Assembly: GCF_024700885.2 (NCBI RefSeq)
Contig: NZ_CP117016.1
Origin: Escherichia coli
Lineage (GTDB): Bacteria; Pseudomonadota; Gammaproteobacteria; Enterobacterales; Enterobacteriaceae
Direction: 5' to 3' (one strand)
DNA: 64,000 bases
The notes below the pieces were generated by a model. The model was not told the origin of the DNA. It did no database searches and saw nothing but the letters and a program-made list of their open reading frames with translations. Made by a program: the position numbers and the translations under genes. Shown here piece after piece: positions 17,931 to 59,268 of this stretch. Within the stretch, counting starts at the first letter, position 1. Each line of letters begins with the position of its first letter.

Positions 17931-20900
17931 ATGAGCGGAAAACCAGCGGCGCGTCAGGGAGATATGACTCAGTATGGCGGTCCCATTGTCCAGGGTTCGG
18001 CAGGTGTAAGAATTGGCGCGCCCACCGGCGTGACGGACGGTGCCGGGCGGGAGTTCCGTCTGGTGCTGACCACGCAGGCGCAGCGGGCGGAAGAGGCCCG
18101 TAAACAGCACACCGCTTCCTTATTTTCCCCTGACACCCCCCGCCCTCTTTCAGCCTCAGCGTTCCCCGACACACTGCCCGGTACCGAATACGGCCCCGAC
18201 AGGGGCATCCGTCTTTCGGCGGTGTGGCTGATGCACGACCCGGCATACCCGGAGAGCCTGCCCGGTGCGCCACTGGTGCGGTACACGTATACGGAAGCCG
18301 GTGAACTGCTGGCGGTATATGACCGCAGCAATACGCAGGTGCGCGCTTTCACGTATGACGCGCAGCACCCGGGCCGGATGGTGGCGCACCGTTACGCGGG
18401 AAGGCCGGAGATGCGCTACCGCTACGACGATGCGGGGCGGGTGGTGGAGCAGCTGAACCCGGCAGGCCTGAGTTACCGCTACCAGTATGAGCAGGACCGC
18501 ATCACCGTCACGGACAGCCTGAACCGGCGTGAGGTGCTGCATACAGAAGGCGGGGCCGGGCTGAAGCGGGTGGTGAAAAAAGAACTGGCGGACGGCAGCG
18601 TCACGCGCAGCGGGTATGACCCGGTGGGGCGGCTTACGGCGCAGACGGACGCGGCGGGACGGCGGACAGAGTACGGTCTGAATGTGGTGTCAGGCGACAT
18701 CACGGACATCACCACGCCGGACGGGCGGGAGACGAAATTTTACTATAACGACGGGAACCTGGTGACGGCGGTGGTGTACCCGGACGGGCTGGAGAGCCGC
18801 CGGGCGTATGATGAGCGGGACAGGCTGGTATCGGAGACATCGCGCAGTGGGGACGTCATCCGGTATGCTTATGATAATCCGCACAGTGAATTACCGGCCA
18901 CGACAACAGATGCGACGGGCAGCACCCGGCAGATGACCTGGAGCCGCTACGGTCAGTTGCTGGCGTTCACCGACTGCTCGGGCTACCAGACCCGCTATGA
19001 GTATGACCGCTTCGGCCAGATGACGGCGGTCCACCGCGAGGAAGGCATCAGCCTTTACCGCCACTATGACAACCGTGGCCGGTTAACCTCGGTGAAAGAC
19101 GCACAGGGCCGTGAAACGCAGTATGAGTACAACGCCGCAGGCGACCTGACTGCCGTTATCACCCCGGGCGGCAACCGGAGCGAGACACAGTACGATGCGT
19201 GGGGAAAAGCGGTCAGCACCACGCAGGGCGGGCTGACGCGCAGTATGGAGTATGACGCGGCAGGACGTGTCGCCACGCTGACCAACGAGAACGGCAGTGA
19301 CAGCGCCTTCCGTTACGACGCACTGGACCGGCTGGTACAGCAGGGCGGCTTTGACGGGCGGACGCAACGTTATCATTATGACCTGACCGGAAAACTCACG
19401 CAGAGTGAAGATGAGGGGCTTGTCACCCTCTGGCACTACGACGAATCGGACCGCCTCACTCACCGCACGGTGAACGGCGAACCGGCAGAGCAGTGGCAGT
19501 ATGATGGCCACGGCTGGCTGAGAGAAATCAGCCACCTGAGCGAAGGCCACCGTGTGGCGGTCCACTACGGCTATGACGATAAAGGCCGTCTGACCAGTGA
19601 GCGCCAGACGGTGAAGAACCCGGAGACGGGGGAACTGCTGTGGCAGCATGAGACGAAACAGGCATACAACGAACAGGGGCTGGCAAACCGCGTCACGCCG
19701 GACAGCCTGCCGCCGGTGGAGTGGCTGACCTATGGCAGCGGTTACCTGGCGGGCATGAAGCTGGGCGGGACGCCGCGGGTCGAGTATACGCGGGACAGGC
19801 TGCACCGGGAGACGGTGCGCAGCTTCGGCAGCATGGCAGGCAGTAATTCCGCATATGAACTGACCAGCACATACACCCCCGCAGGTCAGTTACAGAGTCA
19901 GCACCTGAACAGCCTGGTGTATGACCGTGACTACGGGTGGAATGACAACGGCGACCTGGTGCGCATCAGCGGCCCGCGACAGACGCGGGAATACGGCTAC
20001 AGCGCCACGGGCAGGCTGGAGAGCGTGCGCACCCTCGCACCGGACCTGGACATCCGCATCCCGTATGCCACGGACCCGGCGGGCAACCGGCTGCCGGACC
20101 CGGAGCTGCACCCGGACAGTACACTCACAGTGTGGCCGGATAACCGCATCGCGGAGGATGCGCACTATGTCTACCGCCACGATGAATACGGCAGGCTGAC
20201 GGAGAAGACGGACCGCATCCCGGCGGGTGTGATACGGACGGACGACGAGCGGACCCACCACTACGACAGCCAGCACCGCCTGGTGTTCTACACGCGGATA
20301 CAGCATGGCGAGCCGCAGGTGGAGAGCCGCTACCTCTACGACCCGCTGGGCCGCCGGACGGGTAAACGGGTGTGGCGGCGGGTACGTGACCTGACGGGGT
20401 GGATGTCGCTGTCGCGTAAACCGGAGGTAACGTGGTACGGCTGGGACGGTGACAGGCTGACGACGATACAGACACAACAGAGCCGGATCCAGACGGTATA
20501 CGAGCCGGGAAGCTTCACACCACTCATCCGCATCGAAACAGACAACGGCGAGCGGGAGAAAACGCAGCGGCGGAGCCTGGCGGAGAAGTTGCAGCAGGAA
20601 GGAAGCGAGGACGGCCACGGTGTGGTGTTCCCGGCAGAACTTGTGAGGATGCTGGACAGGCTGGAGGGGGAAATCCGGGCAGACCGCGTGAGCAGTGAAA
20701 GCCGCCAGTGGCTGGCACAGTGCGGGCTGACGGTGGAGCGGCTGGCGGCACAGATAGAGCCGGTTTATTTACCTGAGCGAAAAATTCATCTTTATCACTG
20801 TGACCACCGGGGGCTGCCGCTGGCGCTCATCAGTACCGAAGGAGCAACGGAATGGCGTGGGGAATATGATGAATGGGGCAACCTGCTGAATGAGGAGAAC

Positions 20901-35747: not shown

Positions 35748-36104
35748 TTACATCTGGGCTGAAAACTCACGTTCTAAGACATCAACAATGAGCTGGTTTT
35801 TTGAAATGGAATGTTGTCTGGCGACGATGGTCAGCCGCGAATCAATGTGATGAGGAACACGAAGCGTCAGGCGTTTTTGCTCTTCTTCTTCACGAAAAGG
35901 GGCAATACCGTCCTCTTCACAATCCGCCATCCACTCATCCAGCGCGCTTTCGCCTTCACGATATAATGCCTCAATACTTGTGGCTACAAAGTCACAATAA
36001 CCGTTTACATTGAGGAACTTGCCGCGAAATGCGTTGATATCGGCTTCAAATGTCACTGCGGCTGGTTGACCTTTAATTGTGATAATGTTCGATGCTTTAT
36101 TCAT
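35748..36104 (-). CDS. HicB-like antitoxin with C-terminal ribbon-helix-helix
   Basis: 118 aa; HicB-like core (YCDFVATSIEALYREGESALDEWMADCEEDGIAPF) and an RHH-like tail (KRLTLRVPHHIDSRLTIVARQHSISKNQLIVDVLE); overlaps the upstream ORF by 8 nt. Confidence 0.5.
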   Translation of the reverse strand: MNKASNIITIKGQPAAVTFEADINAFRGKFLNVNGYCDFVATSIEALYREGESALDEWMADCEEDGIAPFREEEEQKRLTLRVPHHIDSRLTIVARQHSISKNQLIVDVLEREFSAQM

Positions 36105-36396
36105 AATCTACCCCTACACAGTTAACAAACCACTCCTTAAGACCTGCTACTGCGCCTTTATCCATCACATTCTTTGGATGTGGCTCATGTGTGCTGAATT
36201 TGGTCGTTCCAATCTGAAATTTTCGTCTGGAGCCGTTGTTATTTTTTATTGTTCCACCCACAGCTTTAATGAGTGCAACAACATCATCCCATTTAATTCC
36301 AGATTTTGGCGGCTCCGTCATTACATCGTCGAATGTTTTTCTATGACGAGAGCCTAGCGCGCTGACCTTAATCATACTATCAATCCATGACGTCAT
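36097..36396 (-). CDS. HicA-like toxin (YcfA family) with N-terminal extension
   Basis: 99 aa; HicA-like pattern GSRRKF...THEPHPKNVMDKGAVAGLKEW; first gene of the two-gene pair. Confidence 0.5.
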   Translation of the reverse strand: MTSWIDSMIKVSALGSRHRKTFDDVMTEPPKSGIKWDDVVALIKAVGGTIKNNNGSRRKFQIGTTKFSTHEPHPKNVMDKGAVAGLKEWFVNCVGVDYE

Positions 36397-36479: not shown

Positions 36480-38573
36480 TCAACTCAACGCCCCCATAAT
36501 CTTCAACTCCAGCTCATCCGGCACTTCGTTATACGACAGCACATGCAGCCCCGGCGCAAACAATCTCGCATAGCGCGCCAGCAAAGGACGCAACTGCGGC
36601 GGCACCAGCAGCACCGGGTCTTTCCCCGCCGCTTTCATCTGCTCCTTCACCTGCGGCATCGTGATCTGAAACTGGTTGAGCATATTCGGGTCAACCGGTA
36701 CGCTGTCGAGCATCACTTTCCCGCCCTGTTGCGCCTGATTCACCACGTTGGTCAGCAGATTTTCCAGCTCATTATTCAGCGTATACACCGTCAGCTCCTG
36801 CTTGCGAACGAGCGGATGGGTAATGCTGCGCCGTAGCGCCAGGCGCACATCAGCTGCCAGCAGAATATGATCTTTGGTCACTGTGCTACTGGCGACCAGC
36901 ACGGTGGCGATGGTGACGATATCGCGCAGGGAAACGCCTTCAGTCAGTAGCGCCCGGTACACTTTCAGCAACTGGCTGTAATTGAGCGCCGCGCTCAAAT
37001 CTTCCGCCAGTCGCGGTGCCATCGACGACAAACGGTTATGCAGCTGAGTAATATCGTCATAGTTAAACAAATCAGGAATATAGCTGCGGACAATCTTGTT
37101 CACATGGGTGGCAATCACGCTGGCGCTGTCGATCACCTGATACCCCATATTCAGCGCCTTCGCTTTCTGCGCAGGCTGAATCCAGGTGACCGGCATCCCG
37201 TACGCCGGGTCGTTCCCCAATACGCCGTCTATCTCGCCGTAGGTTTCGCTGGAGGGCAGGGCCATCAGTTTATCCGCCGGAATATCCGCTTCATCAGCCT
37301 TAATGCCGTTGATGAAAATGGCGTACTGGCTGGGCTTGAGGCGGAAATTTTCCCGAATGCGGATCTCCGGCAGCAGCACGCCGTTGCCGTCGGAAATCAC
37401 CTGCCGCACGCCGCGAATCCGCTGGGTGAGCGGGTTACCTTGGGCTTTATCGACCAGCGCCACCAGCTTGTAGCCGAGGCTTAAGCTGATGGGCTCGATC
37501 AGCGGAATGGTTTCCCAACTGACCTGTTGCTCGCTGGTTTCAGTGATAGTGCGGGTCAGCGTTTCGAGACTTTTCTCTTCTGCCTCCGCCGCCTGCGGGC
37601 GTTTGCTCATCCGCCAGCCGGTAAAGCCAAGCAGGGCGCTGAACAGCAAAAACGGCAGATGCGGCATTCCCGGCACCACCGCCAGTACGAACATGATCCC
37701 GGTGGCGGTGTAGAGCACCGACGGGCTTGCCAGCAGCTGGTGGCGCACGTCATGGGCGATATCGCCGTTGTCGCTGACGCGGGTGACGATAATCGCCGCC
37801 GCGGTGGAAAGCAGCAGGGAAGGGATCTGCGCCACCAGGCCGTCGCCGATGGTCATCAGCACATATTGCTGGAAGGCGGCGTCGGCGCTCAGGTTGTATT
37901 TGAAGATCCCGATACAGACGCCGCCGATCAGGTTGATCGCCAGAATCATCATCCCGGCTATGGCATCCCCACGCACAAACTTCGATGCCCCGTCCATCGC
38001 GCCGTAGAAATCGGCCTCGCTGGCAACATCTTTACGCCGTGTTTGCGCCTGCGCCTGGTTGATCAACCCGGCGTTAAGATCGGCGTCAATCGCCATCTGT
38101 TTGCCGGGCATCGCGTCCAGGGTAAAGCGGGCGGAAACCTCGGAAATACGCTCGGCCCCTTTGGTGACGACGATAAAGTTGATGATCATCAGGATGATAA
38201 ACACCACGAAACCGACGACAAAGTTGCCGCCAATCACCACCTGACCAAATGACTCAATCACCTTACCTGCTGCGCCCGCGCCGAGATGCCCGTGCAGTAG
38301 CACCACGCGCGTAGAAGCAACGTTCAGCGTCAGGCGCATTAAGGTGGTGATCAGCAAAATGGTCGGGAACAGGCTGAATTCCAGCGGCCTTTTCGCCGAC
38401 ACCGCCACCAGCAGCACCATCACCGCCAGCACAATGTTGAAGGTGAACAGAATATCCAGCAGCGCAGGCGGCAGCGGCAAAATAACCATCGCCAGAATAC
38501 ACAGGATCACCAGCGGCACGCCGGGATTACCGCCGCGCAGTAGCGCGAGGAACGATTTAGTTGTTTTCGCCAT
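36480..38573 (-). CDS. lfhA: Flag-2 (lateral flagellar) export gate protein, FlhA homologue
   Basis: 697 aa, apparently full length; N-terminal TM region and FlhA signature (FTLDAMPGKQMAIDADLNAGLI). Confidence 0.85.
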   Translation of the reverse strand: MAKTTKSFLALLRGGNPGVPLVILCILAMVILPLPPALLDILFTFNIVLAVMVLLVAVSAKRPLEFSLFPTILLITTLMRLTLNVASTRVVLLHGHLGAGAAGKVIESFGQVVIGGNFVVGFVVFIILMIINFIVVTKGAERISEVSARFTLDAMPGKQMAIDADLNAGLINQAQAQTRRKDVASEADFYGAMDGASKFVRGDAIAGMMILAINLIGGVCIGIFKYNLSADAAFQQYVLMTIGDGLVAQIPSLLLSTAAAIIVTRVSDNGDIAHDVRHQLLASPSVLYTATGIMFVLAVVPGMPHLPFLLFSALLGFTGWRMSKRPQAAEAEEKSLETLTRTITETSEQQVSWETIPLIEPISLSLGYKLVALVDKAQGNPLTQRIRGVRQVISDGNGVLLPEIRIRENFRLKPSQYAIFINGIKADEADIPADKLMALPSSETYGEIDGVLGNDPAYGMPVTWIQPAQKAKALNMGYQVIDSASVIATHVNKIVRSYIPDLFNYDDITQLHNRLSSMAPRLAEDLSAALNYSQLLKVYRALLTEGVSLRDIVTIATVLVASSTVTKDHILLAADVRLALRRSITHPLVRKQELTVYTLNNELENLLTNVVNQAQQGGKVMLDSVPVDPNMLNQFQITMPQVKEQMKAAGKDPVLLVPPQLRPLLARYARLFAPGLHVLSYNEVPDELELKIMGALS

Positions 38574-39696
38574 CCAGTTTAAGCACCTCTTTGGGAATGG
38601 AAATATGTCTGTTCAGGGCCGGGCGCGGCTGTGCGCCGTCGCGCCAGTGTTTCATTTGCAGGACGTAGGTCAGAACGTGGGCGATGGCCCGGTAAAGCTG
38701 AAACGGAATTTGCTGGTTCACCTGGGTGGTGTAGTAAACCGAGCGCGCCAGCCGCGGGAACTCGACCACTTCCACCTGATTCTCAGCAGCGACCTGACGA
38801 ATATAGAGGGCGATTTCATCGGTGCCTTTCGCCACCACAAACGGCGCGGCGGCGCGCGACTGGTCGTACTGCAACGCTACGGCGTAGTGGGTCGGGTTGG
38901 TGATCACCACGTTGGCTTTTGGCACCACTTTGCGGATTTGCCCCATCGCCAGCTGCCGTTGCAGCCGCCGCACGCGTGCCTTCACTTCCGGCTTGCCTTC
39001 CTGATTTTTGTACTCTTCTTTCAGCTCCTGCTTGGTCATCTTCAGTCCTTTGGTGAACAGGGCTTTCGCCAGCGGCACGTCGATTAACGCAAAGAAGATA
39101 AACAGGATGACAAAGTTGCGCATCACGCTGGCGTAGAGCGATAAACCGTCATTCATCGCCAGTTTGAACGGTAGTGCCTGCAGGCCGAGAAAGGCGGCAA
39201 AGTTATTGCGCAGGCTTACCCACAGCATCACCAGCACCACCACCGACTTCACCGTCATCTTTCCCGTTTCCGCCAGATGTTCGCTGGAAAACAGTCGCCC
39301 AATGCCTTTTAACGGGCTGATTTTGCTGAAATCCGGGAGGATTTTTTTCGGCAGAAACAGCCAGCCGCCGGGCACCAGCGAAGAGAGCAGCGCGGCGGCG
39401 GGCATCGGTAGCAAGGTAAGAATAAACTTGCCGAGAATTAACAGGTGATGGCGCAGAAACTGGCCGAGCACCTGCGGGTTATTAATCTCCTGCGCATACT
39501 GATGCACGCTGATAAAACTCTCGCGTACAAAATCGGCGTACCACGGAAAACTGCTGGAGATCACCACAAACGCCGCAAACAGGCTCGCCGCTAGCCCCAT
39601 ATCCTTCGAGCGCGGCAGTTGCCCCTCTTCACGCGCTTTACGCAGCTTTTGCGCCGAGGGTTTCTCTGTTTTTTCTTCGCTGCTGCTATCCGCCAT
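38557..39696 (-). CDS. lfhB: Flag-2 export protein, FlhB homologue
   Basis: 379 aa; NPTH autocleavage motif (VVITNPTHYAVAL). Confidence 0.85.
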   Translation of the reverse strand: MADSSSEEKTEKPSAQKLRKAREEGQLPRSKDMGLAASLFAAFVVISSSFPWYADFVRESFISVHQYAQEINNPQVLGQFLRHHLLILGKFILTLLPMPAAALLSSLVPGGWLFLPKKILPDFSKISPLKGIGRLFSSEHLAETGKMTVKSVVVLVMLWVSLRNNFAAFLGLQALPFKLAMNDGLSLYASVMRNFVILFIFFALIDVPLAKALFTKGLKMTKQELKEEYKNQEGKPEVKARVRRLQRQLAMGQIRKVVPKANVVITNPTHYAVALQYDQSRAAAPFVVAKGTDEIALYIRQVAAENQVEVVEFPRLARSVYYTTQVNQQIPFQLYRAIAHVLTYVLQMKHWRDGAQPRPALNRHISIPKEVLKLDGENN

Positions 39697-40519
39697 AGTG
39701 ACCTTTCAGCGCGTCGAGTTGCTGCAACACAAAATTCGCCAGATGCAGATAGTGATCCGGCAGGTTGTAGAGCAGGGTGGCGAAGCAGACCAGCCCCGCC
39801 AGCATGTTGATGGGAAAGCCGAGCGAAAAGAGGTTCAGCGGCGGCGCGATGCGGTTGAGCAGGCCAAAGCAGCCCTGCACAATCAGCATGATAAAGGTGG
39901 TCGGCAGCGCCAGCAGCGATGCGGACGCCAGCACCCAGCTAAAGGCCAGTGCGATGGTGCGCAGGGGTTGCGGATGCAGCGCGTTGCCAATCGGCCAGTA
40001 GGTGAAGCCCTTATACAAAACACTCACCAGCAACAGATGCCCGTCCATGGCAAAAAACAGCAGGATTGCGTAGACGTTGATTAACTCCGCCAGCACGGTG
40101 GTCGATGCGCCGCTGCTCGGGTCGTTCATCACCGCCATGCTCATCCCCATATTGAACGAGAGAATTTGCCCGGCCAGTTGCAGCGCCAGAAACAGAAACT
40201 GAAACATCAGCCCGAACAACATGCCCCATAATATTTGCTCCACCGTCAGGATCAGGCTGTTGAGCGATAGCAGGTCGTGGGGAATGGGATGGGGGATCAA
40301 CGGCGTGATGATGATTGCCAGCGCCAGCGACAAAATGATCCGCACACGCACGGTCAGGGCGCTGTTATCCAGCACCGGCACATAGCGCAGAAACGCCATA
40401 ATGCGCACGAAGGGAAACCACAGCCCCATCGCCAGATCCATCAGTTGCGTAACGTCGCTTGTACGCATCTTAATGCACCAGCAACGCGGCCTGGGTAAAC
40501 AGATGAATACACAGATCAT
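39686..40519 (-). CDS. lfiR: Flag-2 export protein, FliR homologue
   Basis: 277-aa polytopic membrane protein between the FlhB and FliQ homologues. Confidence 0.75.
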   Translation of the reverse strand: MICVFICLPRPRCWCIKMRTSDVTQLMDLAMGLWFPFVRIMAFLRYVPVLDNSALTVRVRIILSLALAIIITPLIPHPIPHDLLSLNSLILTVEQILWGMLFGLMFQFLFLALQLAGQILSFNMGMSMAVMNDPSSGASTTVLAELINVYAILLFFAMDGHLLLVSVLYKGFTYWPIGNALHPQPLRTIALAFSWVLASASLLALPTTFIMLIVQGCFGLLNRIAPPLNLFSLGFPINMLAGLVCFATLLYNLPDHYLHLANFVLQQLDALKGHYGG

Positions 40520-40742
40520 GCAACTGGATAATCATCCATTTGCCGCACACGCCCAGCACCACCAGCGTGACAATCAGCCTCGGCAAAAAACTCAGGGTCT
40601 GTTCGTTAATCTGCGTCACCGCCTGGAACACGCTCACCAGCAGGCCAACCAGCAGGCTCGGCACTACCAGCACGGAAACCAGCAAAATCACCACTTTTAT
40701 GCCGCTCGCGACAATGTCGGCGGCTACGTCTACGGTCAACAT
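40470..40742 (-). CDS. lfiQ: Flag-2 export protein, FliQ homologue
   Basis: 90 aa, two hydrophobic helices; position between the FliP and FliR homologues. Confidence 0.75.
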   Translation of the reverse strand: MLTVDVAADIVASGIKVVILLVSVLVVPSLLVGLLVSVFQAVTQINEQTLSFLPRLIVTLVVLGVCGKWMIIQLHDLCIHLFTQAALLVH

Positions 40743-40744
40743 AA

Positions 40745-41497
40745 TCAGCCCAGCCCCAGCCCGCGAATGCTGGTGGTGAGCGTACCGATTGTCAGCGACC
40801 AGCCGTCGATCAGCACAAACAGCATCAGTTTAAAGGGCAGCGAAACAATCAGCGGCGACAGCATCATCATCCCCATCGCCATCAATACGCTGGCGACAAT
40901 CAGGTCGATAACCAGAAACGGGATGTAAATCATAAAGCCAATCTGGAAGGCGGTTTTCAGCTCGCTCAACACATAGGCAGGCACCACGATGGAGAGATCC
41001 TGATCGGCGGCATTGCCCTTCGCGCCGCCGATGGTCATGATTTGCGCCATCGCTTTTTTGTCGGTCTGCGCCAGCATAAAGCGTTTGAGCGGCGTCGCGG
41101 CGGTGCTTAATGCATCGGTCAGGGTAATCTGATCGTTTTCGAACGGCACTACCGCGTGGTCGTAAATATTGAGCCAGATAGGGCGCATCACCAGCATAGT
41201 GAGTGAGAGCGCAATACCAATCAAAATGCGGTTTGGCGGCGTTTGTTGCAGCCCCAGCGCCTGGCGCAGCAGCGACAGCACGATAATAAAGCGCGTAAAG
41301 CAGGTCATCATCAGCACCATCGTCGGCAGCAAACCGACGAGGGTCATCAGAATCAGTACCTGAATTTTGACGCTGTACTCCTGAGTGTTGCCGTGGGTGA
41401 CCACGTTAAGCAGCGCAATATCGCCACCCTGGGCTAACGCCAGCGGCGCAAGCGCCAGCAGCCCAAGGCCCAGCGTCAGTTGAGTGCGGCGTTTCAT
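40745..41497 (-). CDS. lfiP: Flag-2 export protein, FliP homologue
   Basis: 250 aa; signal peptide and FliP-like membrane core. Confidence 0.8.
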   Translation of the reverse strand: MKRRTQLTLGLGLLALAPLALAQGGDIALLNVVTHGNTQEYSVKIQVLILMTLVGLLPTMVLMMTCFTRFIIVLSLLRQALGLQQTPPNRILIGIALSLTMLVMRPIWLNIYDHAVVPFENDQITLTDALSTAATPLKRFMLAQTDKKAMAQIMTIGGAKGNAADQDLSIVVPAYVLSELKTAFQIGFMIYIPFLVIDLIVASVLMAMGMMMLSPLIVSLPFKLMLFVLIDGWSLTIGTLTTSIRGLGLG

Positions 41498-41925
41498 GGT
41501 GCCAGGTCGTTGATATCGCGGGTGTTAAACTCCAGCACGCGCAGGCCGTACTTCTCGTTGACCACCACCACTTCTGCTTTGCCCAACAGGATATTGTTTA
41601 CTTTAATATCCAGCGGCTCCCCGGCGAGCTTATCCAGCTCAATCACCGTGTCGTCGTCGATGTTAAGGAGGTCGGCTAACATGATCTCTACTGATGACAC
41701 TTCCAGCGTTAAGGTCACCGGAATGCGTTTTAGCAGCGTCATCGAGTCGGAAAAACGGTCTTCCAGGCGGGTGACCAGCGTTTCAGCGTCGGCAGATTTC
41801 GCGACAGGCGCAACTTCATCGGTGAGGCCAAAATCCCCGGCTAAAATATCTTCTTGCTTACTCATGGCTATTCTCATTTTTGCCCGCCAGCTCCGACAAA
41901 AACAGTTTGTCTTTGTCTTCCACAA
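41494..41925 (-). CDS. lfiN: Flag-2 C-ring protein, FliN homologue
   Basis: 143 aa; SpoA-like C-terminus (IDDDTVIELDKLAGEPLDIKVNNILLGKAEVVVVNEKYGLRV). Confidence 0.7.
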   Translation of the reverse strand: MWKTKTNCFCRSWRAKMRIAMSKQEDILAGDFGLTDEVAPVAKSADAETLVTRLEDRFSDSMTLLKRIPVTLTLEVSSVEIMLADLLNIDDDTVIELDKLAGEPLDIKVNNILLGKAEVVVVNEKYGLRVLEFNTRDINDLAP

Positions 41926-42709
41926 TCAGGGCGCTAAATAATTCAGATTGCCCAATCGCCACCGGGAACGTTTCTCCCAGCGAGATGGGTAAAATATCCC
42001 CGGCTTTTATCTGCGTGAGATCCGCGACATTCAGCGACAGCTCGGCGATTTTGACGTTCAGGGTCAGCGGCAGAGAGCGGATAATCTCTTTAATCAGGGC
42101 CGGTTTATTAACGGATTTCGCCACCTGCTGCGGTTTACTGTGCTCGCTGTGGCGGATCAGATTCAAAATAAAATCGGTGTGGGCGTCGTCGAGCAAAATA
42201 CGAAAACTGCTCTCTTCATCGCCCGCAAGGGTAAAGGTTAATTGATACGCCCAGTGGGTAATCACCGTGCTGCTATCCAGCTTTAATTTCAGCGCAATAC
42301 CGGAGGTTTGCAGATTAAATATCAGCGTGCAGATATCCAGCGCGAGTCGGTTTTTTAAACGAGTTTCGGTTTTGGTCGGCAGCCCGTTATGCGCTTTCGC
42401 CTCTTCAAGAGAGGACTCCAGACCATAAAAATTGCCCAGCAGCATTAACAATAAGGAGCGATCAATATCAAACGCCAGATGCCCGACCTGGGAAACCATC
42501 AGTTCGGCGTTTTTATTAATAATATCCATTTCGCAGCCAATCTTTTTTAAGGTGATATTGCTGCGATGCTTTTTGAGAAAGTAGCTGCCCAGATGCGAAT
42601 CAATCACGTCAAAATTCCCCGTAAACAGGGTCGGCAGGCGATGGTAGGGGCGTCCGAGCCGATTACCTTCTAATTTAAAGATGCCTGGCGTTTTACTGTA
42701 CTTCAGCAT
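41858..42709 (-). CDS. lfiM: Flag-2 C-ring protein, FliM homologue
   Basis: 283 aa; position upstream of the FliN homologue; C-terminal FliN-like segment. Confidence 0.65.
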   Translation of the reverse strand: MLKYSKTPGIFKLEGNRLGRPYHRLPTLFTGNFDVIDSHLGSYFLKKHRSNITLKKIGCEMDIINKNAELMVSQVGHLAFDIDRSLLLMLLGNFYGLESSLEEAKAHNGLPTKTETRLKNRLALDICTLIFNLQTSGIALKLKLDSSTVITHWAYQLTFTLAGDEESSFRILLDDAHTDFILNLIRHSEHSKPQQVAKSVNKPALIKEIIRSLPLTLNVKIAELSLNVADLTQIKAGDILPISLGETFPVAIGQSELFSALIVEDKDKLFLSELAGKNENSHE

Positions 42710-43081: not shown

Positions 43082-43349
43082 ATGTCTGAACTTATTGCAA
43101 CTGCCGCTTCCAGCATTAACGCTTTTACTCTGGCAAAGCGTGTCGCCGCATTTAACGTGCCGGTGCTCATTCAGGGCGAAACCGGCGCGGGCAAAGAATG
43201 CGTGGCAAAATATATTCACACCGTCGCCTTTGGTGAAAATGATAACGCGCCCTATATCGGCGTGAACTGCGCGGCGATCCCGGAAAACATGCTGGAAGCT
43301 ACATTATTTGGCTACGACAAAGGCGCATTTACCGGCGCAATTGCCAGCG
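43082..43349 (+). pseudogene. lafK: 5' fragment of a sigma-54-dependent activator (LafK-like) truncated by IS1
   Basis: AAA+ sigma-54 activator motifs (VLIQGETGAGKECVAKYIH...NCAAIPENMLEATLFGYDKGAFTGA); the reading frame runs into the IS1 inverted repeat and terminates. Confidence 0.7.
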
Positions 43350-44117
43350 GGTGATGCTGCCAACTTACTGATTTAGTGTATGATGGTGTTTTTGAGGTGC
43401 TCCAGTGGCTTCTGTTTCTATCAGCTGTCCCTCCTGTTCAGCTACTGACGGGGTGGTGCGTAACGGCAAAAGCACCGCCGGACATCAGCGCTATCTCTGC
43501 TCTCACTGCCGTAAAACATGGCAACTGCAGTTCACTTACACCGCTTCTCAACCCGGTACGCACCAGAAAATCATTGATATGGCCATGAATGGCGTTGGAT
43601 GCCGGGCAACCGCCCGCATTATGGGCGTTGGCCTCAACACGATTTTCCGCCATTTAAAAAACTCAGGCCGCAGTCGGTAACCTCGCGCATACAGCCGGGC
43701 AGTGACGTCATCGTCTGCGCGGAAATGGACGAACAGTGGGGATACGTCGGGGCTAAATCGCGCCAGCGCTGGCTGTTTTACGCGTATGACAGGCTCCGGA
43801 AGACGGTTGTTGCGCACGTATTCGGTGAACGCACTATGGCGACGCTGGGGCGTCTTATGAGCCTGCTGTCACCCTTTGACGTGGTGATATGGATGACGGA
43901 TGGCTGGCCGCTGTATGAATCCCGCCTGAAGGGAAAGCTGCACGTAATCAGCAAGCGATATACGCAGCGAATTGAGCGGCATAACCTGAATCTGAGGCAG
44001 CACCTGGCACGGCTGGGACGGAAGTCGCTGTCGTTCTCAAAATCGGTGGAGCTGCATGACAAAGTCATCGGGCATTATCTGAACATAAAACACTATCAAT
44101 AAGTTGGAGTCATTACC
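43350..44117 (+). mobile_element. insAB: IS1 insertion sequence (768 bp) encoding InsA and InsB
   Basis: Terminal inverted repeats ggtgatgctgccaacttactgat (left) and atcaataagttggagtcattacc (right); InsA ORF 43405..43680, InsB ORF 43599..44102. Flanking 9-mers differ (ttgccagcg vs ggaatgcct). Confidence 0.9.
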
Positions 44118-44118
44118 G

Positions 44119-44274
44119 GAATGCCTGACGGAAATGAAATTTGAAGATTTGCGCGGCATGAAAATATCCGCCATCCGCAAACTGATTTCTGATGCGCTAA
44201 AGAAAGATCTTCAGCGTCGCAAAATGAGCGCACCGTATAAGGATTTGCTGGTGAAAAAAGTGGTCTTCCAGTAA
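44119..44274 (+). pseudogene. 3' remnant of a Flag-2 gene, possibly the FliL-like lafF
   Basis: Open frame from the IS1 boundary encoding ...ISAIRKLISDALKKDLQRRKMSAPYKDLLVKKVVFQ stop; no start codon; sits directly upstream of lafS. Confidence 0.4.
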
Positions 44275-44293: not shown

Positions 44294-45010
44294 ATGCTAC
44301 AGGACGTATTCGAGTCAGAAGAATTTGCTGCCGCGCCGGTATTAACCCCGCAGCAGGAGAGCCACTACTTGCAGGCCTATTTACCGTTGGTGCGTAAAGT
44401 GGTGCGGCAACTTGCCCCGCAGTGTAATTGCATTATTGATCGTCAGGATATGGAACAAATGGCGTTAATGGGGCTGCTTAATGCCATTCGTCGCTACGGG
44501 CTGCCGGACGAAGGTTTTGCGGGCTATGCCGTGCACCGTATTCGCGGCGCGATCCTGGATGAGCTGCGCGCTCTCGACTGGCGACCGCGCCAGCTGCGAC
44601 AGAAATATCATCAGATGAAAGATCTGATACGCGAAACGCGTAAAAAACTGGGGCACGAACCGGAGTGGTCAGAACTGGCCGTGGAAGGGATTTCGCATGA
44701 AGATTATATCGAATATCAGCAACTGGAAGGGGCGGAAACGCTCGCCAGCCTTGACGAACTGCTGAACGGCGAAGGGCCAGGCATTCCACTTGTTGGCAGG
44801 GAACTGGAAGATCAGTTTGTCACCCAGCAAATGCTGCAATACGCGCTTTCACTATTAAGCGAAAAAGAGCAACTGATCCTCTCCATGTATTACCAGCATG
44901 AGATGAATCTCAAAGAGATTGCGCTGGTATTAGGGCTAACCGAGGCCCGAATTTGTCAACTGAATAAACAGATCGCGCAGAAAATTCGTGATTTTGTCTA
45001 TCCGAATTAA
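44294..45010 (+). CDS. lafS: Flag-2 sigma-28-type sigma factor (FliA homologue)
   Basis: 238 aa; sigma-70 family regions 2 and 4 (HRIRGAILDELRALDW; NLKEIALVLGLTEARICQL). Confidence 0.8.
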   Translation: MLQDVFESEEFAAAPVLTPQQESHYLQAYLPLVRKVVRQLAPQCNCIIDRQDMEQMALMGLLNAIRRYGLPDEGFAGYAVHRIRGAILDELRALDWRPRQLRQKYHQMKDLIRETRKKLGHEPEWSELAVEGISHEDYIEYQQLEGAETLASLDELLNGEGPGIPLVGRELEDQFVTQQMLQYALSLLSEKEQLILSMYYQHEMNLKEIALVLGLTEARICQLNKQIAQKIRDFVYPN

Positions 45011-45022
45011 AGTGAAGAAATC

Positions 45023-45886
45023 ATGCAAAAAATATTAGGTTTACTGGTGGTGCTCGGCTGCGTATTTGGCGGTTATTTTGAAGCGGGCGGGCAACTAGTG
45101 GCTATCTGGCAACCGGCGGAGATGATCATTATTTTGGGTGCCGGTTTCGGGGCGATGATTATTGGTAATCCGAAACATGTGCTGAAAGAGATTGCTCATC
45201 AAATTAAAGGCGTGATCAGTAAAAAACAGCTCGGGCCGGAGTTTCAGCGTCAGCTATTAATGTGCCTGTATGAGTTGCTCGAAATGGTACAAAACGGCGG
45301 CCTGCGCATGTTGGATCAGCATATTGAGCAGCCGGAAGAGAGCACCGTTTTCCAGAAATACCCGCTGGTGTTAACCCAGAAGCGGCTGGTGACCTTTATT
45401 GCCGATAACTTTCGCCTGATGGCGATGGGCAAAATCGACGCCCACGAACTGGAAGGCATTCTCGATCAGGAGCTGGATACCGCCGAAGAGTCGCTGCTCA
45501 CGCCGTCGCGCTCGCTGCAACGTACCGCCGAAGCGATGCCGGGATTTGGTATTTGCGCGGCGGTGCTGGGCATCATCATCACCATGCAGTCGATTGATGG
45601 ATCTATCGCCCTGATTGGCCTGAAAGTGGCGGCGGCTCTGGTGGGGACGTTTTTAGGCGTCTTTATCTGCTACTGCCTGATGGACCCGCTTGCCAACGCC
45701 ATGGAACAACAGGCGCGGGCGGAACATTCTTTGCTGGAATGTGTGCGTACCGTGCTGGTGGCGCAGGCGGGCGGTAAACCGACGCTGCTGGCGGTAGACG
45801 CCGGGCGTAAGCTGCTGCATCTAGCGTCCAAACCGACCTTCGCCAACCTCGACGCGTGGGTGAATGCGATGCTGGAGCAAGAATAA
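45023..45886 (+). CDS. lafT: Flag-2 stator protein, MotA homologue
   Basis: 287 aa; four-TM MotA-like architecture. Confidence 0.85.
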   Translation: MQKILGLLVVLGCVFGGYFEAGGQLVAIWQPAEMIIILGAGFGAMIIGNPKHVLKEIAHQIKGVISKKQLGPEFQRQLLMCLYELLEMVQNGGLRMLDQHIEQPEESTVFQKYPLVLTQKRLVTFIADNFRLMAMGKIDAHELEGILDQELDTAEESLLTPSRSLQRTAEAMPGFGICAAVLGIIITMQSIDGSIALIGLKVAAALVGTFLGVFICYCLMDPLANAMEQQARAEHSLLECVRTVLVAQAGGKPTLLAVDAGRKLLHLASKPTFANLDAWVNAMLEQE

Positions 45887-45888
45887 GC

Positions 45889-46812
45889 ATGAGAAAGACG
45901 GGCAACCGCCGCGAGCGTGGGGCAAAAACCACCATCGTCCGGCGGCAGATCAAAAAGAATCATGCCGGGCATCACGGCGGGGCGTGGAAGGTGGCGTTCG
46001 CCGACTTTACTTTGGCAATGATGGCGCTATTTATGACGCTGTGGATTGTCAACAGCGTCAGTAAATCCGAGCGTGAAAGCATTATCGCCGCGCTGCACGG
46101 GCAGTCGATTTTCAATGGCGGCGGGTTGTCGCCGTTAAATAAAATCAGCCCGTCTCATCCGCCAAAACCTGCCACCGTGGCGGTGCCGGAAGAGACGGAG
46201 AAAAAAGCGCGTGACGTCAATGAGAAAACGGCGCTGCTGAAGAAGAAATCAGCCACTGAGCTTGGCGAGCTGGCGACCAGTATCAACACCATTGCCCGTG
46301 ATGCACATATGGAAGCGAATCTGGAGATGGAGATTGTTCCCCAGGGACTGCGCGTGCTGATTAAAGATGACCAGAACCGCAATATGTTTGAACGCGGCAG
46401 CGCACAGATTATGCCGTTCTTTAAAACTTTGCTGGTGGAGCTCGCGCCAGTGTTCGACTCGCTCGATAACAAAATTATTATTACCGGGCATACCGATGCG
46501 ATGGCCTACAAAAACAATATCTACAACAACTGGAACCTTTCGGGCGATCGCGCGCTTTCGGCTCGTCGGGTGCTGGAAGAGGCCGGAATGCCGGAAGATA
46601 AAGTGATGCAGGTGAGCGCGATGGCGGACCAGATGCTGCTGGACGCGAAAAATCCGCAAAGCGCGGGCAACCGACGCATTGAGATTATGGTGCTGACCAA
46701 AAGTGCGTCCGATACGCTGTATCAATACTTTGGTCAGCATGGGGATAAAGTGGTGCAGCCGCTGGTGCAAAAGCTGGATAAGCAGCAGGTGCATTCGCAG
46801 CGAACGCGCTAG
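45889..46812 (+). CDS. lafU: Flag-2 stator protein, MotB homologue
   Basis: Likely start at MRKTGNRRERG (45889; track ORF begins 45856); single TM helix and OmpA-like C-terminal domain (NWNLSGDRALSARRVLEEAG). Confidence 0.85.
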   Translation: MRKTGNRRERGAKTTIVRRQIKKNHAGHHGGAWKVAFADFTLAMMALFMTLWIVNSVSKSERESIIAALHGQSIFNGGGLSPLNKISPSHPPKPATVAVPEETEKKARDVNEKTALLKKKSATELGELATSINTIARDAHMEANLEMEIVPQGLRVLIKDDQNRNMFERGSAQIMPFFKTLLVELAPVFDSLDNKIIITGHTDAMAYKNNIYNNWNLSGDRALSARRVLEEAGMPEDKVMQVSAMADQMLLDAKNPQSAGNRRIEIMVLTKSASDTLYQYFGQHGDKVVQPLVQKLDKQQVHSQRTR

Positions 46813-52269: not shown

Positions 52270-53514
52270 ATGACACAGGCAAACCTGAGCGAAACCCTGT
52301 TCAAACCCCGCTTTAAACATCCTGAAACCTCGACGCTAGTTCGCCGCTTTAATCACGGCGCACAACCGCCTGTGCAGTCGGCCCTTGATGGTAAAACCAT
52401 CCCTCACTGGTATCGCATGATTAACCGTCTGATGTGGATCTGGCGCGGCATTGACCCACGTGAAATCCTCGACGTCCAGGCACGTATTGTGATGAGCGAT
52501 GCCGAACGTACCGACGATGATTTATACGATACGGTGATTGGCTACCGCGGCGGCAACTGGATTTATGAGTGGGCTACCCAGGCGATGGTGTGGCAACAAA
52601 AAGCCTGTGCGGAAGAAGATCCGCAACTCAGTGGTCGTCACTGGCTGCATGCGGCTACGTTGTACAACATTGCCGCCTATCCTCATCTGAAAGGAGATGA
52701 CCTGGCCGAGCAAGCGCAGGCTTTGTCAAACCGCGCCTATGAAGAGGCCGCCCAGCGTCTGCCGGGCACCATGCGGCAGATGGAGTTTACCGTACCCGGC
52801 GGTGCGCCCATCACCGGCTTTTTGCATATGCCGAAAGGGGATGGCCCGTTCCCGACAGTATTAATGTGTGGTGGTCTGGATGCGATGCAGACGGACTATT
52901 ACAGCCTGTATGAACGTTATTTTGCGCCGCGCGGCATTGCGATGCTGACTATTGATATGCCGTCGGTGGGCTTTTCTTCAAAATGGAAGCTCACCCAGGA
53001 CTCCAGCCTGTTGCATCAGCACGTCTTAAAGGCGCTGCCTAACGTACCGTGGGTAGATCACACTCGCGTCGCGGCCTTTGGTTTCCGTTTCGGCGCTAAC
53101 GTTGCCGTACGTCTGGCATACCTTGAATCGCCGCGTCTGAAAGCGGTTGCCTGTCTTGGTCCGGTAGTTCATACCCTGTTGAGTGATTTTAAGTGCCAGC
53201 AACAGGTGCCGGAAATGTATCTTGACGTTCTGGCGAGTCGTTTGGGGATGCATGATGCTTCCGACGAAGCGTTGCGCGTGGAGCTGAATCGCTATTCATT
53301 AAAAGTGCAAGGATTGCTGGGACGTCGCTGCCCAACGCCAATGTTATCAGGCTACTGGAAGAACGATCCGTTCAGCCCGGAAGAGGACTCACGCTTAATC
53401 ACCTCATCATCTGCTGACGGTAAATTATTAGAGATCCCATTTAACCCAGTGTATCGGAATTTTGACAAAGGTCTTCAGGAAATCACCGACTGGATCGAAA
53501 AACGATTGTGTTAA
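52270..53514 (+). CDS. frsA: Esterase FrsA (fermentation/respiration switch protein)
   Basis: 414 aa; alpha/beta-hydrolase fold. Confidence 0.9.
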
Positions 53515-57837: not shown

Positions 57838-57913
57838 GCCGATATAGCTCAGTTGGTAGAGCAGCGCATTCGTAATGCGAAGGTCGTAGGTTCGACTCCT
57901 ATTATCGGCACCA
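57838..57913 (+). tRNA. thrW: tRNA-Thr (anticodon CGU)
   Basis: 76-nt sequence gccgatatagctcagttggtagagcagcgcattcgtaatgcg...ggttcgactcctattatcggcacca with cloverleaf features and CGT in the anticodon loop. Confidence 0.9.
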
Positions 57914-58008
57914 TCACCTAGTTTTCCCAAGTCAACCCACATCAACAAAATCATTTAAAAACATATATATTACGTTGTTTTCATACGTTTGAGGTCAACC
58001 CTTGTCTC

Positions 58009-59268
58009 TTGAAATCAACACGCGGTTGGGGGCACAATCAGGGGCATGTTCTGTTCGGTCTAGGAAATGTGCCCCCAATGATGCTGAATGCCCGCAAGGT
58101 TGAAGCTGCGAAAGGAAAAGAGAAGAGCTACAAGCTGTTTGATGGAGGTGGCCTATATCTTCAGGTCGAACCTAATGGCTCGCGTTACTGGCGTATGAAA
58201 TACCGTTTTGCTGGTAAAGAGAAACGATTGTCCTTTGGTGTTTATCCAACAGTCACACTTGCTGATGCCAGACAAAAACGAGAAGACGCGAAGAAACTAC
58301 TCGCAGCAGGTGAAGATCCCGGCGAAGTCAAAAAAGCCAAAAAGCAGGCTTTAAATGCAGCGATTGAGACACTTAACCCATTCAGAGAAGTGGCGTTAGA
58401 GTGGCACAAAATGAAATCACCCAAATGGTCTGAGGGCTATGCTTCCGACATCATTGAGGCATTCGAGAAAGACATTTTCCCGCATATTGGGCACAGACCT
58501 ATAGCTGATATTCAGCCCCTTGAACTGCTTGAAGTTCTGAGATTGATAGAAGCTCGAGGCGCTATGGAGAAAGCGAAGAAAGTCCGTCAGCGATGCGGTG
58601 AAGTTTTTCGCTATGCCATCGTAACGGGTAGGGCAATCTACAATCCGGCACCGGATCTTGCCAGTGCGATGCAAGGACATGAAGCAGTCCACTATCCATT
58701 CCTCAAAGCCAACGAACTACCGGAGTTCTTTAATGCCCTTAATTCTTATTCAGGAAGTCCAATTGTATTGTTGGGGGCGCATTTACTTATCCTGACAGGT
58801 CTACGAACTGGAGAACTACGAGCAGGTGAGTGGCGAGAGGTGGATTTTGATAATGCGGTGTGGGAGATCCCAAAAGAACGTATGAAAATGCGTAGGAGCC
58901 ATATTGTCCCGTTGTCAAAACAAGCATTATCCCATCTCAAAAGTTTGAAAGAACTAACTGGGAACTACCCGCTGATGTTCCCTGGACGCAACGATCCTAG
59001 CAAATTTATGAGTGAAGCAAGCATTAATCAGGTGTTTAAACGTATTGGATATGCAGGGCGTGTTACGGGGCATGGTTTCAGGCATACGATGAGTACAATC
59101 CTACATGAGAAAGGATTTAACAGCGCTTGGATTGAAACCCAGCTTGCTCATTCGGACAAAAACTCTATTCGTGGAATTTATAACCATGCCCAATATCTCG
59201 AAGGGAGAAGAGAAATGATGCAATGGTATGCTAATTATTTATCTGAGCTAATTGGTACTCATAAATGA
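58009..59268 (+). CDS. int: P4-type tyrosine integrase
   Basis: 419 aa; N-terminal arm-binding region (LFDGGGLYLQVEPNGSRYWRMKYRFAGKEKRLSFGVYP), C-terminal catalytic region (HGFRHT...YNHAQY); starts 95 nt after the tRNA. Confidence 0.9.
   Translation: MKSTRGWGHNQGHVLFGLGNVPPMMLNARKVEAAKGKEKSYKLFDGGGLYLQVEPNGSRYWRMKYRFAGKEKRLSFGVYPTVTLADARQKREDAKKLLAAGEDPGEVKKAKKQALNAAIETLNPFREVALEWHKMKSPKWSEGYASDIIEAFEKDIFPHIGHRPIADIQPLELLEVLRLIEARGAMEKAKKVRQRCGEVFRYAIVTGRAIYNPAPDLASAMQGHEAVHYPFLKANELPEFFNALNSYSGSPIVLLGAHLLILTGLRTGELRAGEWREVDFDNAVWEIPKERMKMRRSHIVPLSKQALSHLKSLKELTGNYPLMFPGRNDPSKFMSEASINQVFKRIGYAGRVTGHGFRHTMSTILHEKGFNSAWIETQLAHSDKNSIRGIYNHAQYLEGRREMMQWYANYLSELIGTHK

Follow-up and report, generated by a model that had tools for sequence, protein, structure and literature searches.

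The IS1 element at positions 43350-44117 of the analysed DNA is the scar at the site of a deletion of about 31.8 kb in the Flag-2 locus of Escherichia coli MLI114. We consider that IS1 had probably inserted at one of the two breakpoints and then promoted an adjacent deletion, which is the best explanation of the present arrangement (probability about 0.6). The stretch that we analysed, called the window throughout, comprises 64 kb of the MLI114 chromosome (NZ_CP117013.1). MLI114 produces ESBL and comes from a stool sample of a European soldier in Mali. Its sister isolate MLI121 differs from it by 14 cgMLST alleles, and its Flag-2 locus is not discussed in the paper that describes the strain (PMC10198576).

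Results

The nearest complete relative of MLI114 is the O166:H15 strain JNE070796, which is collinear with the window and differs from it by 5 mismatches in 63.2 kb. When the whole window was aligned to three joined stretches of JNE070796, 2 of these mismatches fell into the left 43,349 bp and 3 into the right 19,883 bp, and a single structural difference was found: 31,796 bp are replaced by a 768-bp IS1. The left breakpoint lies in lafK codon 90, whose first base ends the left flank, and the right breakpoint in lafF codon 104, whose last base starts the right flank. The first-pass annotation had proposed that IS1 generated the Flag-2 deletion, and the replacement of precisely this interval by one intact IS1 bears the proposal out. 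PCN033, without the restriction-modification and toxin-antitoxin cargo of JNE070796, has 27,936 bp between these breakpoints.

The missing 31,796 bp hold 34 whole genes (Table 1). All of the hook, rod, ring, filament, export-ATPase and chaperone genes of Flag-2 are among them.

Comparison with strains carrying an intact lafK had been suggested as a check, and its result was uniform. Seven complete genomes were 100% identical to the 7.75 kb on the left and the 1 kb on the right of IS1, namely the O166:H15 strains JNE070796, JNE21-003 and JNE21-009 together with AST20, AST240, E700025 and 1190. In 7/7 of these near-identical relatives the whole interval is intact and IS1 is found at neither breakpoint. 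The restriction-modification cargo is likewise present in 7/7 relatives (29 of the 5,426 complete genomes overall), and no replicon of MLI114 has it when chromosome and plasmids are searched. Since the cargo is gone from every replicon, the segment was deleted rather than translocated, and we rejected a move to another place in the genome as a candidate explanation. The restriction-modification pair and the RelE/ParE-HTH pair are 'addiction'-type modules, yet they were lost along with the flagellar genes.

Table 1. Features at the IS1 junction and in the interval missing from the window
Feature	Position	Strand	Remarks
Left flanking 9-mer ttgccagcg	43341..43349		direct reading of sequence
Complete IS1	43350..44117	+	IS1B-type (RefSeq annotation); 768 bp, both ends intact, at the deletion junction
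IS1 left terminal inverted repeat (IRL)	43350..43372	+	23 nt, inverted-repeat pair with IRR
IS1 right terminal inverted repeat (IRR)	44095..44117	+	23 nt, inverted-repeat pair with IRL
insA	43405..43680	+	91 aa; Pfam Zn_ribbon_InsA 3e-21, HTH_Tnp_IS1 1.7e-30
insB' frame (DDE transposase domain)	43599..44102	+	Pfam DDE_Tnp_IS1 2.3e-78
Right flanking 9-mer ggaatgcct	44118..44126		direct reading of sequence
lafK', 5' remnant of the sigma-54-dependent Flag-2 activator gene	43082..43349	+	89 codons + 1 nt of 328
lafF', 3' remnant of the FliL-like Flag-2 gene	44119..44274	+	codons 105-155
Left Flag-2 arm: lfhA, lfhB, lfiR, lfiQ, lfiP, lfiN, lfiM	36480..42709	-	all ORFs intact, RefSeq annotation
Right Flag-2 arm: lafS (sigma-28-like), lafT (MotA-like), lafU (MotB-like)	44294..46812	+	all ORFs intact
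Lost flagellar genes: lfiE through lfiJ; lfgN, lfgM, lfgA through lfgL; lafW, lafZ, lafA through lafE			
Lost glycosylation genes			within the deleted interval
Lost type II restriction endonuclease and C5 cytosine methyltransferase	L007:21112-23829		interval missing from window
Lost RelE/ParE-HTH toxin-antitoxin pair	L007:34974-35624		interval missing from window

At the left end of the scar, LafK is cut to 89 of its 328 residues. The remnant retains the Walker A region but neither the bulk of the AAA+ domain nor the C-terminal portion, and the Pfam profile Sigma54_activat is matched only at profile positions 3-83 of 168. The reading frame extends 5 nt into IS1 and ends at the stop codon TGA at 43352-43354. 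PGAP annotates lafK' as a pseudogene without C-terminus and lafF' as a pseudogene without N-terminus; the two remnants were also compared with native LafK and native LafF, respectively. Next to lafF' follow intact lafS, lafT and lafU and then dinB, and the retained left arm from lfhA to lfiM is 100% identical to that of the relatives. The ten remaining Flag-2 genes (lfhAB, lfiRQPNM, lafSTU) are all intact and unchanged from the relatives, which fits a recent deletion. With 34 genes irreversibly lost and the lafK activator truncated, these ten genes would be left orphaned.

Other features of the window were recorded alongside. In MLI114 and the relatives of O166:H15 type, yafL is separated from lfhA by a hicB-hicA toxin-antitoxin pair (35748-36375 of the window), which PCN033 does not have at this place. 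Downstream of a type VI secretion cluster, two diverged Rhs-core repeats (18023-21061 and 22818-25863) are about 79-87% identical. An ISAs1 copy occupies 27027-28163, and a P4-like integrase island at 57838-59268 adjoins the tRNA-Thr after proA. Rhs-core repeats, ISAs1 copy and integrase island are all common to the window and JNE070796.

The element at the junction, the sole IS1 within the 64-kb window, shows the structure of the IS1 family in length, inverted repeats, presence of insA plus insB' and the A6C frameshift motif. It begins with GGTGATGCTGCC and ends with GGAGTCATTACC, and these termini are identical to those of four other IS1 copies found in Flag-2 loci of other strains. IRL and IRR match at 18 of 23 positions (78% complementary). 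The overlap of insA and insB' contains the -1 frameshift motif TTAAAAAAC at 43654-43662, and a programmed frameshift is likewise recorded by PGAP, which assigns the transposase to the IS1B family. Every match to the IS1 domains (PF03811, PF12759 and PF03400) was far above the Pfam cut-off. Because both inverted repeats, insA, insB' and the frameshift site are present, this IS1 is apparently competent to transpose. Its pattern of mismatches against the four other copies, none of which is from MLI114, is neutral on a mosaic origin.

The two 9-mers that flank IS1 had been described as different, and ttgccagcg and ggaatgcct indeed agree at 1 of 9 positions. A target-site duplication of 8-9 bp marks a simple insertion and does not define IS1 itself; its absence here is a property of the event, and membership of the element in the family is unaffected. 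The first-pass annotation had allowed that a repeat might emerge at slightly different IS1 boundaries. We therefore moved each boundary by -6 to +6 bp and compared repeats of 7-12 bp in length. No convincing direct repeat of 7-12 bp was found at boundaries shifted by up to 6 bp, the best candidate agreeing at 6 of 8 positions, and the copy stands as an IS1 without target duplication. IS1 copies in the Flag-2 loci of other strains served as positive controls and gave perfect duplications (S1-THA-01-A 9/9, Res13-Lact-PEA12-26 9/9, D97-1 8/8), which shows that the test is able to detect one. In the intact locus the two flanks are 31,796 bp apart, so that the absence of a duplication is accounted for by the deletion. 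An 18-nt similarity between CCGGAAAACATGCTGGAA and CCGGAATGCCTGACGGAA was considered as a target duplication as well and rejected, as its left copy is 53 bp from the IS1 end.

The junctions were then sought in other assemblies. Among 5,426 complete E. coli genomes, queries made of 60 bp of flank and 60 bp of IS1 found each junction in MLI114 alone. In public assemblies, the marker of the left junction, a chimeric 90-aa LafK' product with its stop in IS1, was present on 5 contigs. One of the five, a metagenome scaffold, agrees with the window at every base over 3,322 bp and ends 54 nt inside IS1; the right junction, too, is present on a metagenome scaffold. The right-junction marker is the predicted edge-partial product of k=31 contigs that open with 30 nt of IS1, and it occurred in 49 index blocks, from which 25 contigs were read. 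A contig from SRR31847538 matches the window without a difference along 10,187 bp, including the MLI114-specific base at 52619; SRR13318104 is a further run with the right junction. Both junctions are thus repeated with 0 mismatches in independent short-read assemblies from other samples. As they recur base for base, the deletion junction is a real allele of a clone in circulation rather than a product of assembly errors.

Right- and left-junction markers were found at unequal frequency (49 blocks versus 5, about tenfold). This asymmetry may be technical. Alternatively, the lafF junction may be older, and leftward deletions of varying extent may have given rise to other left end points.

A common G/T polymorphism is located at 44118, directly beside the IS1 end, in a Val codon of lafF (GTG/GTT). 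In mixed samples it breaks de Bruijn contigs and thereby mimics an IS junction. Logan contigs that start at or near 44118 with a 51-aa LafF fragment were examined as extra IS1 junctions and rejected; they are native sequence with the G/T polymorphism. Draft E. coli assemblies also contain many 'partial' N-terminal LafK fragments of 81-181 aa, which result from contig breaks throughout lafK. Further IS insertions possibly lie behind such breaks.

Taken together, these data bear on the simplest reading of the locus, a plain insertion into lafK whose duplication has decayed or was missed through mis-set boundaries, or else an assembly collapsed across IS1 repeats. This reading would explain the bare absence of a duplication and nothing more. 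It is contradicted by a right flank that belongs not to lafK but to lafF, 31.8 kb from the left flank when the locus is intact, by the shifted boundaries that yield no repeat, by the loss of the restriction-modification cargo from chromosome and plasmids, and by junctions that recur with 0 mismatches in independent assemblies of other samples. We consider it refuted, with a probability close to nil. The earlier suggestion of an adjacent deletion or a recombination between two IS1 copies, as opposed to mere insertion into lafK, agrees with flanks that are not neighbours in intact loci.

IS1 occupies 7 places on the MLI114 chromosome compared with 0-3 in the seven near-identical relatives, which suggests a recent expansion of IS1 in MLI114. 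The element is also recurrent in the Flag-2 loci of unrelated strains, where D97-1, S1-THA-01-A, CP61_Sichuan and Res13-Lact-PEA12-26 carry it at four independent sites. Two of these copies are in lfiM (with duplications of 8 bp and 9 bp) and one is in lafS (9-bp duplication). In CP61_Sichuan, the flanks agree at 2 of 9 positions, no duplication is present and the dinJ-yafQ side is joined to lfiM. CP61_Sichuan thus has a second IS1-linked Flag-2 deletion, independent of that in MLI114. Strains that had been listed with the left flank next to IS1, or with IS1 next to the right flank, were rejected as carriers of the MLI114 junctions; their IS1 copies lie at lfiM, lafS or the dinJ side instead.

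Discussion

How did one IS1 come to replace 31.8 kb of Flag-2? We infer a two-step history of insertion and a subsequent intramolecular event. In the first step, a simple insertion would have placed IS1 at one breakpoint or the other and duplicated 9 bp there. In the second step, transposase would have directed the ends of IS1 to another site of the chromosome, some 31.8 kb distant, in an intramolecular, replicative-type reaction. The DNA in between would have been expelled as a non-replicating circle with one copy of IS1, and the copy left in the chromosome would be joined to its old flank on one side and to the new target on the other. An IS1 retained in this way would have mismatched flanks. 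Reif and Saedler in 1975 and Turlan and Chandler in 1995 reportedly described precise adjacent deletions by IS1.

Insertion followed by adjacent deletion is preferred for its parsimony, as it takes two events versus three for recombination between IS1 copies, and also because it is documented behaviour of insertion sequences (PMC11708052). Adjacent deletions and recombination between IS copies are both frequent causes of missing duplications, and in the Lenski lines 14/14 events that combined an IS with a deletion proved, on inspection of earlier time points, to be insertion and then adjacent deletion (PMC11708052). For flag-2, a survey across the enterobacteria identifies transposition, that of IS1 among others, as a major force behind en bloc deletions (PMC6993521).

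Several observations count against this preferred account. A progenitor with IS1 and its duplication at either breakpoint was found neither among the 5,426 complete genomes, which were searched by junction queries, nor in the public assemblies, where six predicted junction-specific protein products were looked up in the index and none was on record; one exact-pattern scan of the JGI metagenomes gave 0 hits. The roughly tenfold excess of the right- over the left-junction marker is a further point. Finally, homologous recombination between two direct IS1 copies has the same end product, and the repeated IS1 hits in Flag-2 elsewhere make two nearby insertions less improbable. Strains with IS1 at the same site and intact flanks, the other comparison put forward in the first-pass annotation, were likewise encountered in none of the 5,426 complete genomes and nowhere in the public-assembly index. 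Its choice of an IS1-linked deletion holds, and the two mechanisms that it named would yield identical end products.

Recombination would start from two independent IS1 insertions in direct orientation, in lafK with a duplicated ttgccagcg and in lafF with a duplicated ggaatgcct, between which a RecA-dependent exchange then deleted the interval and one IS1. Each flank would be one half of a different duplication, which is exactly the product observed. The four independent IS1 sites near these flanks in other strains identify Flag-2 as a recurrent IS1 target, MLI114 has 7 chromosomal copies to offer, and it is on record that recombination between IS copies can leave duplications missing (PMC11708052). 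However, the route needs three events instead of two. It also predicts two extra junctions, IS1-IRR with ttgccagcg and the 3' part of lafK, and the 5' part of lafF with ggaatgcct and IS1-IRL, and neither is on record in any genome or assembly. We view recombination as the main rival of the preferred account, tenable though rather unlikely as the origin of the scar.

In a third scenario, an IS1 arriving from elsewhere, for example from a plasmid, joined two sites 31.8 kb apart in a single step, with no earlier IS1 and no duplication. None of the relatives has IS1 at either breakpoint, and for IS5 in E. coli C, movements that leave no duplication and coincide with large deletions have been suggested (PMC11708052). 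An unsampled progenitor is weak evidence, however; the Lenski-line events cited above were all (14/14) resolved into insertion and then adjacent deletion (PMC11708052), and no such mechanism is established for IS1. A single step thus appears improbable. If true, it would give the 'IS movement with large deletion' events that have been put forward for IS5 and IS481 in laboratory evolution (PMC11708052) a parallel in a natural isolate.

The MLI114 deletion leaves existing knowledge of IS1 and Flag-2 unchanged, being IS-mediated gene loss of an ordinary and well-understood kind. It offers a clean, recent and clone-specific case in which IS1 removed an organelle gene cluster, with 34 genes that include the flagellin LafA as well as restriction-modification and toxin-antitoxin pairs, and it adds one more data point on the decay of Flag-2 in E. 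coli. In addition, the two junction sequences can serve as a marker by which an ESBL lineage is followed.

With both flanks ancestrally non-adjacent and the IS intact at the junction, the event is, judged by sequence, a member of the known class of IS-anchored deletions. It resembles the classical IS1-promoted adjacent deletions of gal, lac and Tn9 in that a complete IS1 is kept, the deletion starts precisely from an IS1 end, no target duplication is present and tens of kb are gone on one side. Unlike those selected laboratory deletions, it occurred in a natural clinical lineage, where the progenitor insertion and the dependence on transposase are putative and the deletion may have run in either direction. 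With the IS150 events of the Lenski lines (PMC11708052) it shares an IS that is central to a large deletion, the lack of duplications and a putative multi-step history; the elements differ (IS1 versus the IS3/IS150 family), and the earlier insertion is visible there in frozen time points.

Within the enterobacteria, flag-2 en bloc deletions and disruptions by IS elements (De Maayer et al. 2020, PMC6993521; Ren et al. 2005) affect the same locus, whose function is again lost by deletion. In the classical Flag-2 deletion of E. coli K-12, with end points within lfhA (fhiA) and lafU (mbhA), the two genes are joined via short direct repeats and without an IS. The MLI114 deletion, in contrast, is internal (lafK to lafF), bounded by IS1 and flanked by ten intact Flag-2 genes; its end points are not of the K-12 type, as lfhA (2,094 nt) and lafU (924 nt) are both annotated as intact. 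CP61_Sichuan is comparable in that an IS1 with mismatched flanks (2/9 there) stands in place of part of Flag-2. Unlike in MLI114, it is the other arm that was lost in CP61_Sichuan, from the yafL/lfhA side up to lfiM, while lafK and the genes downstream of it are intact.
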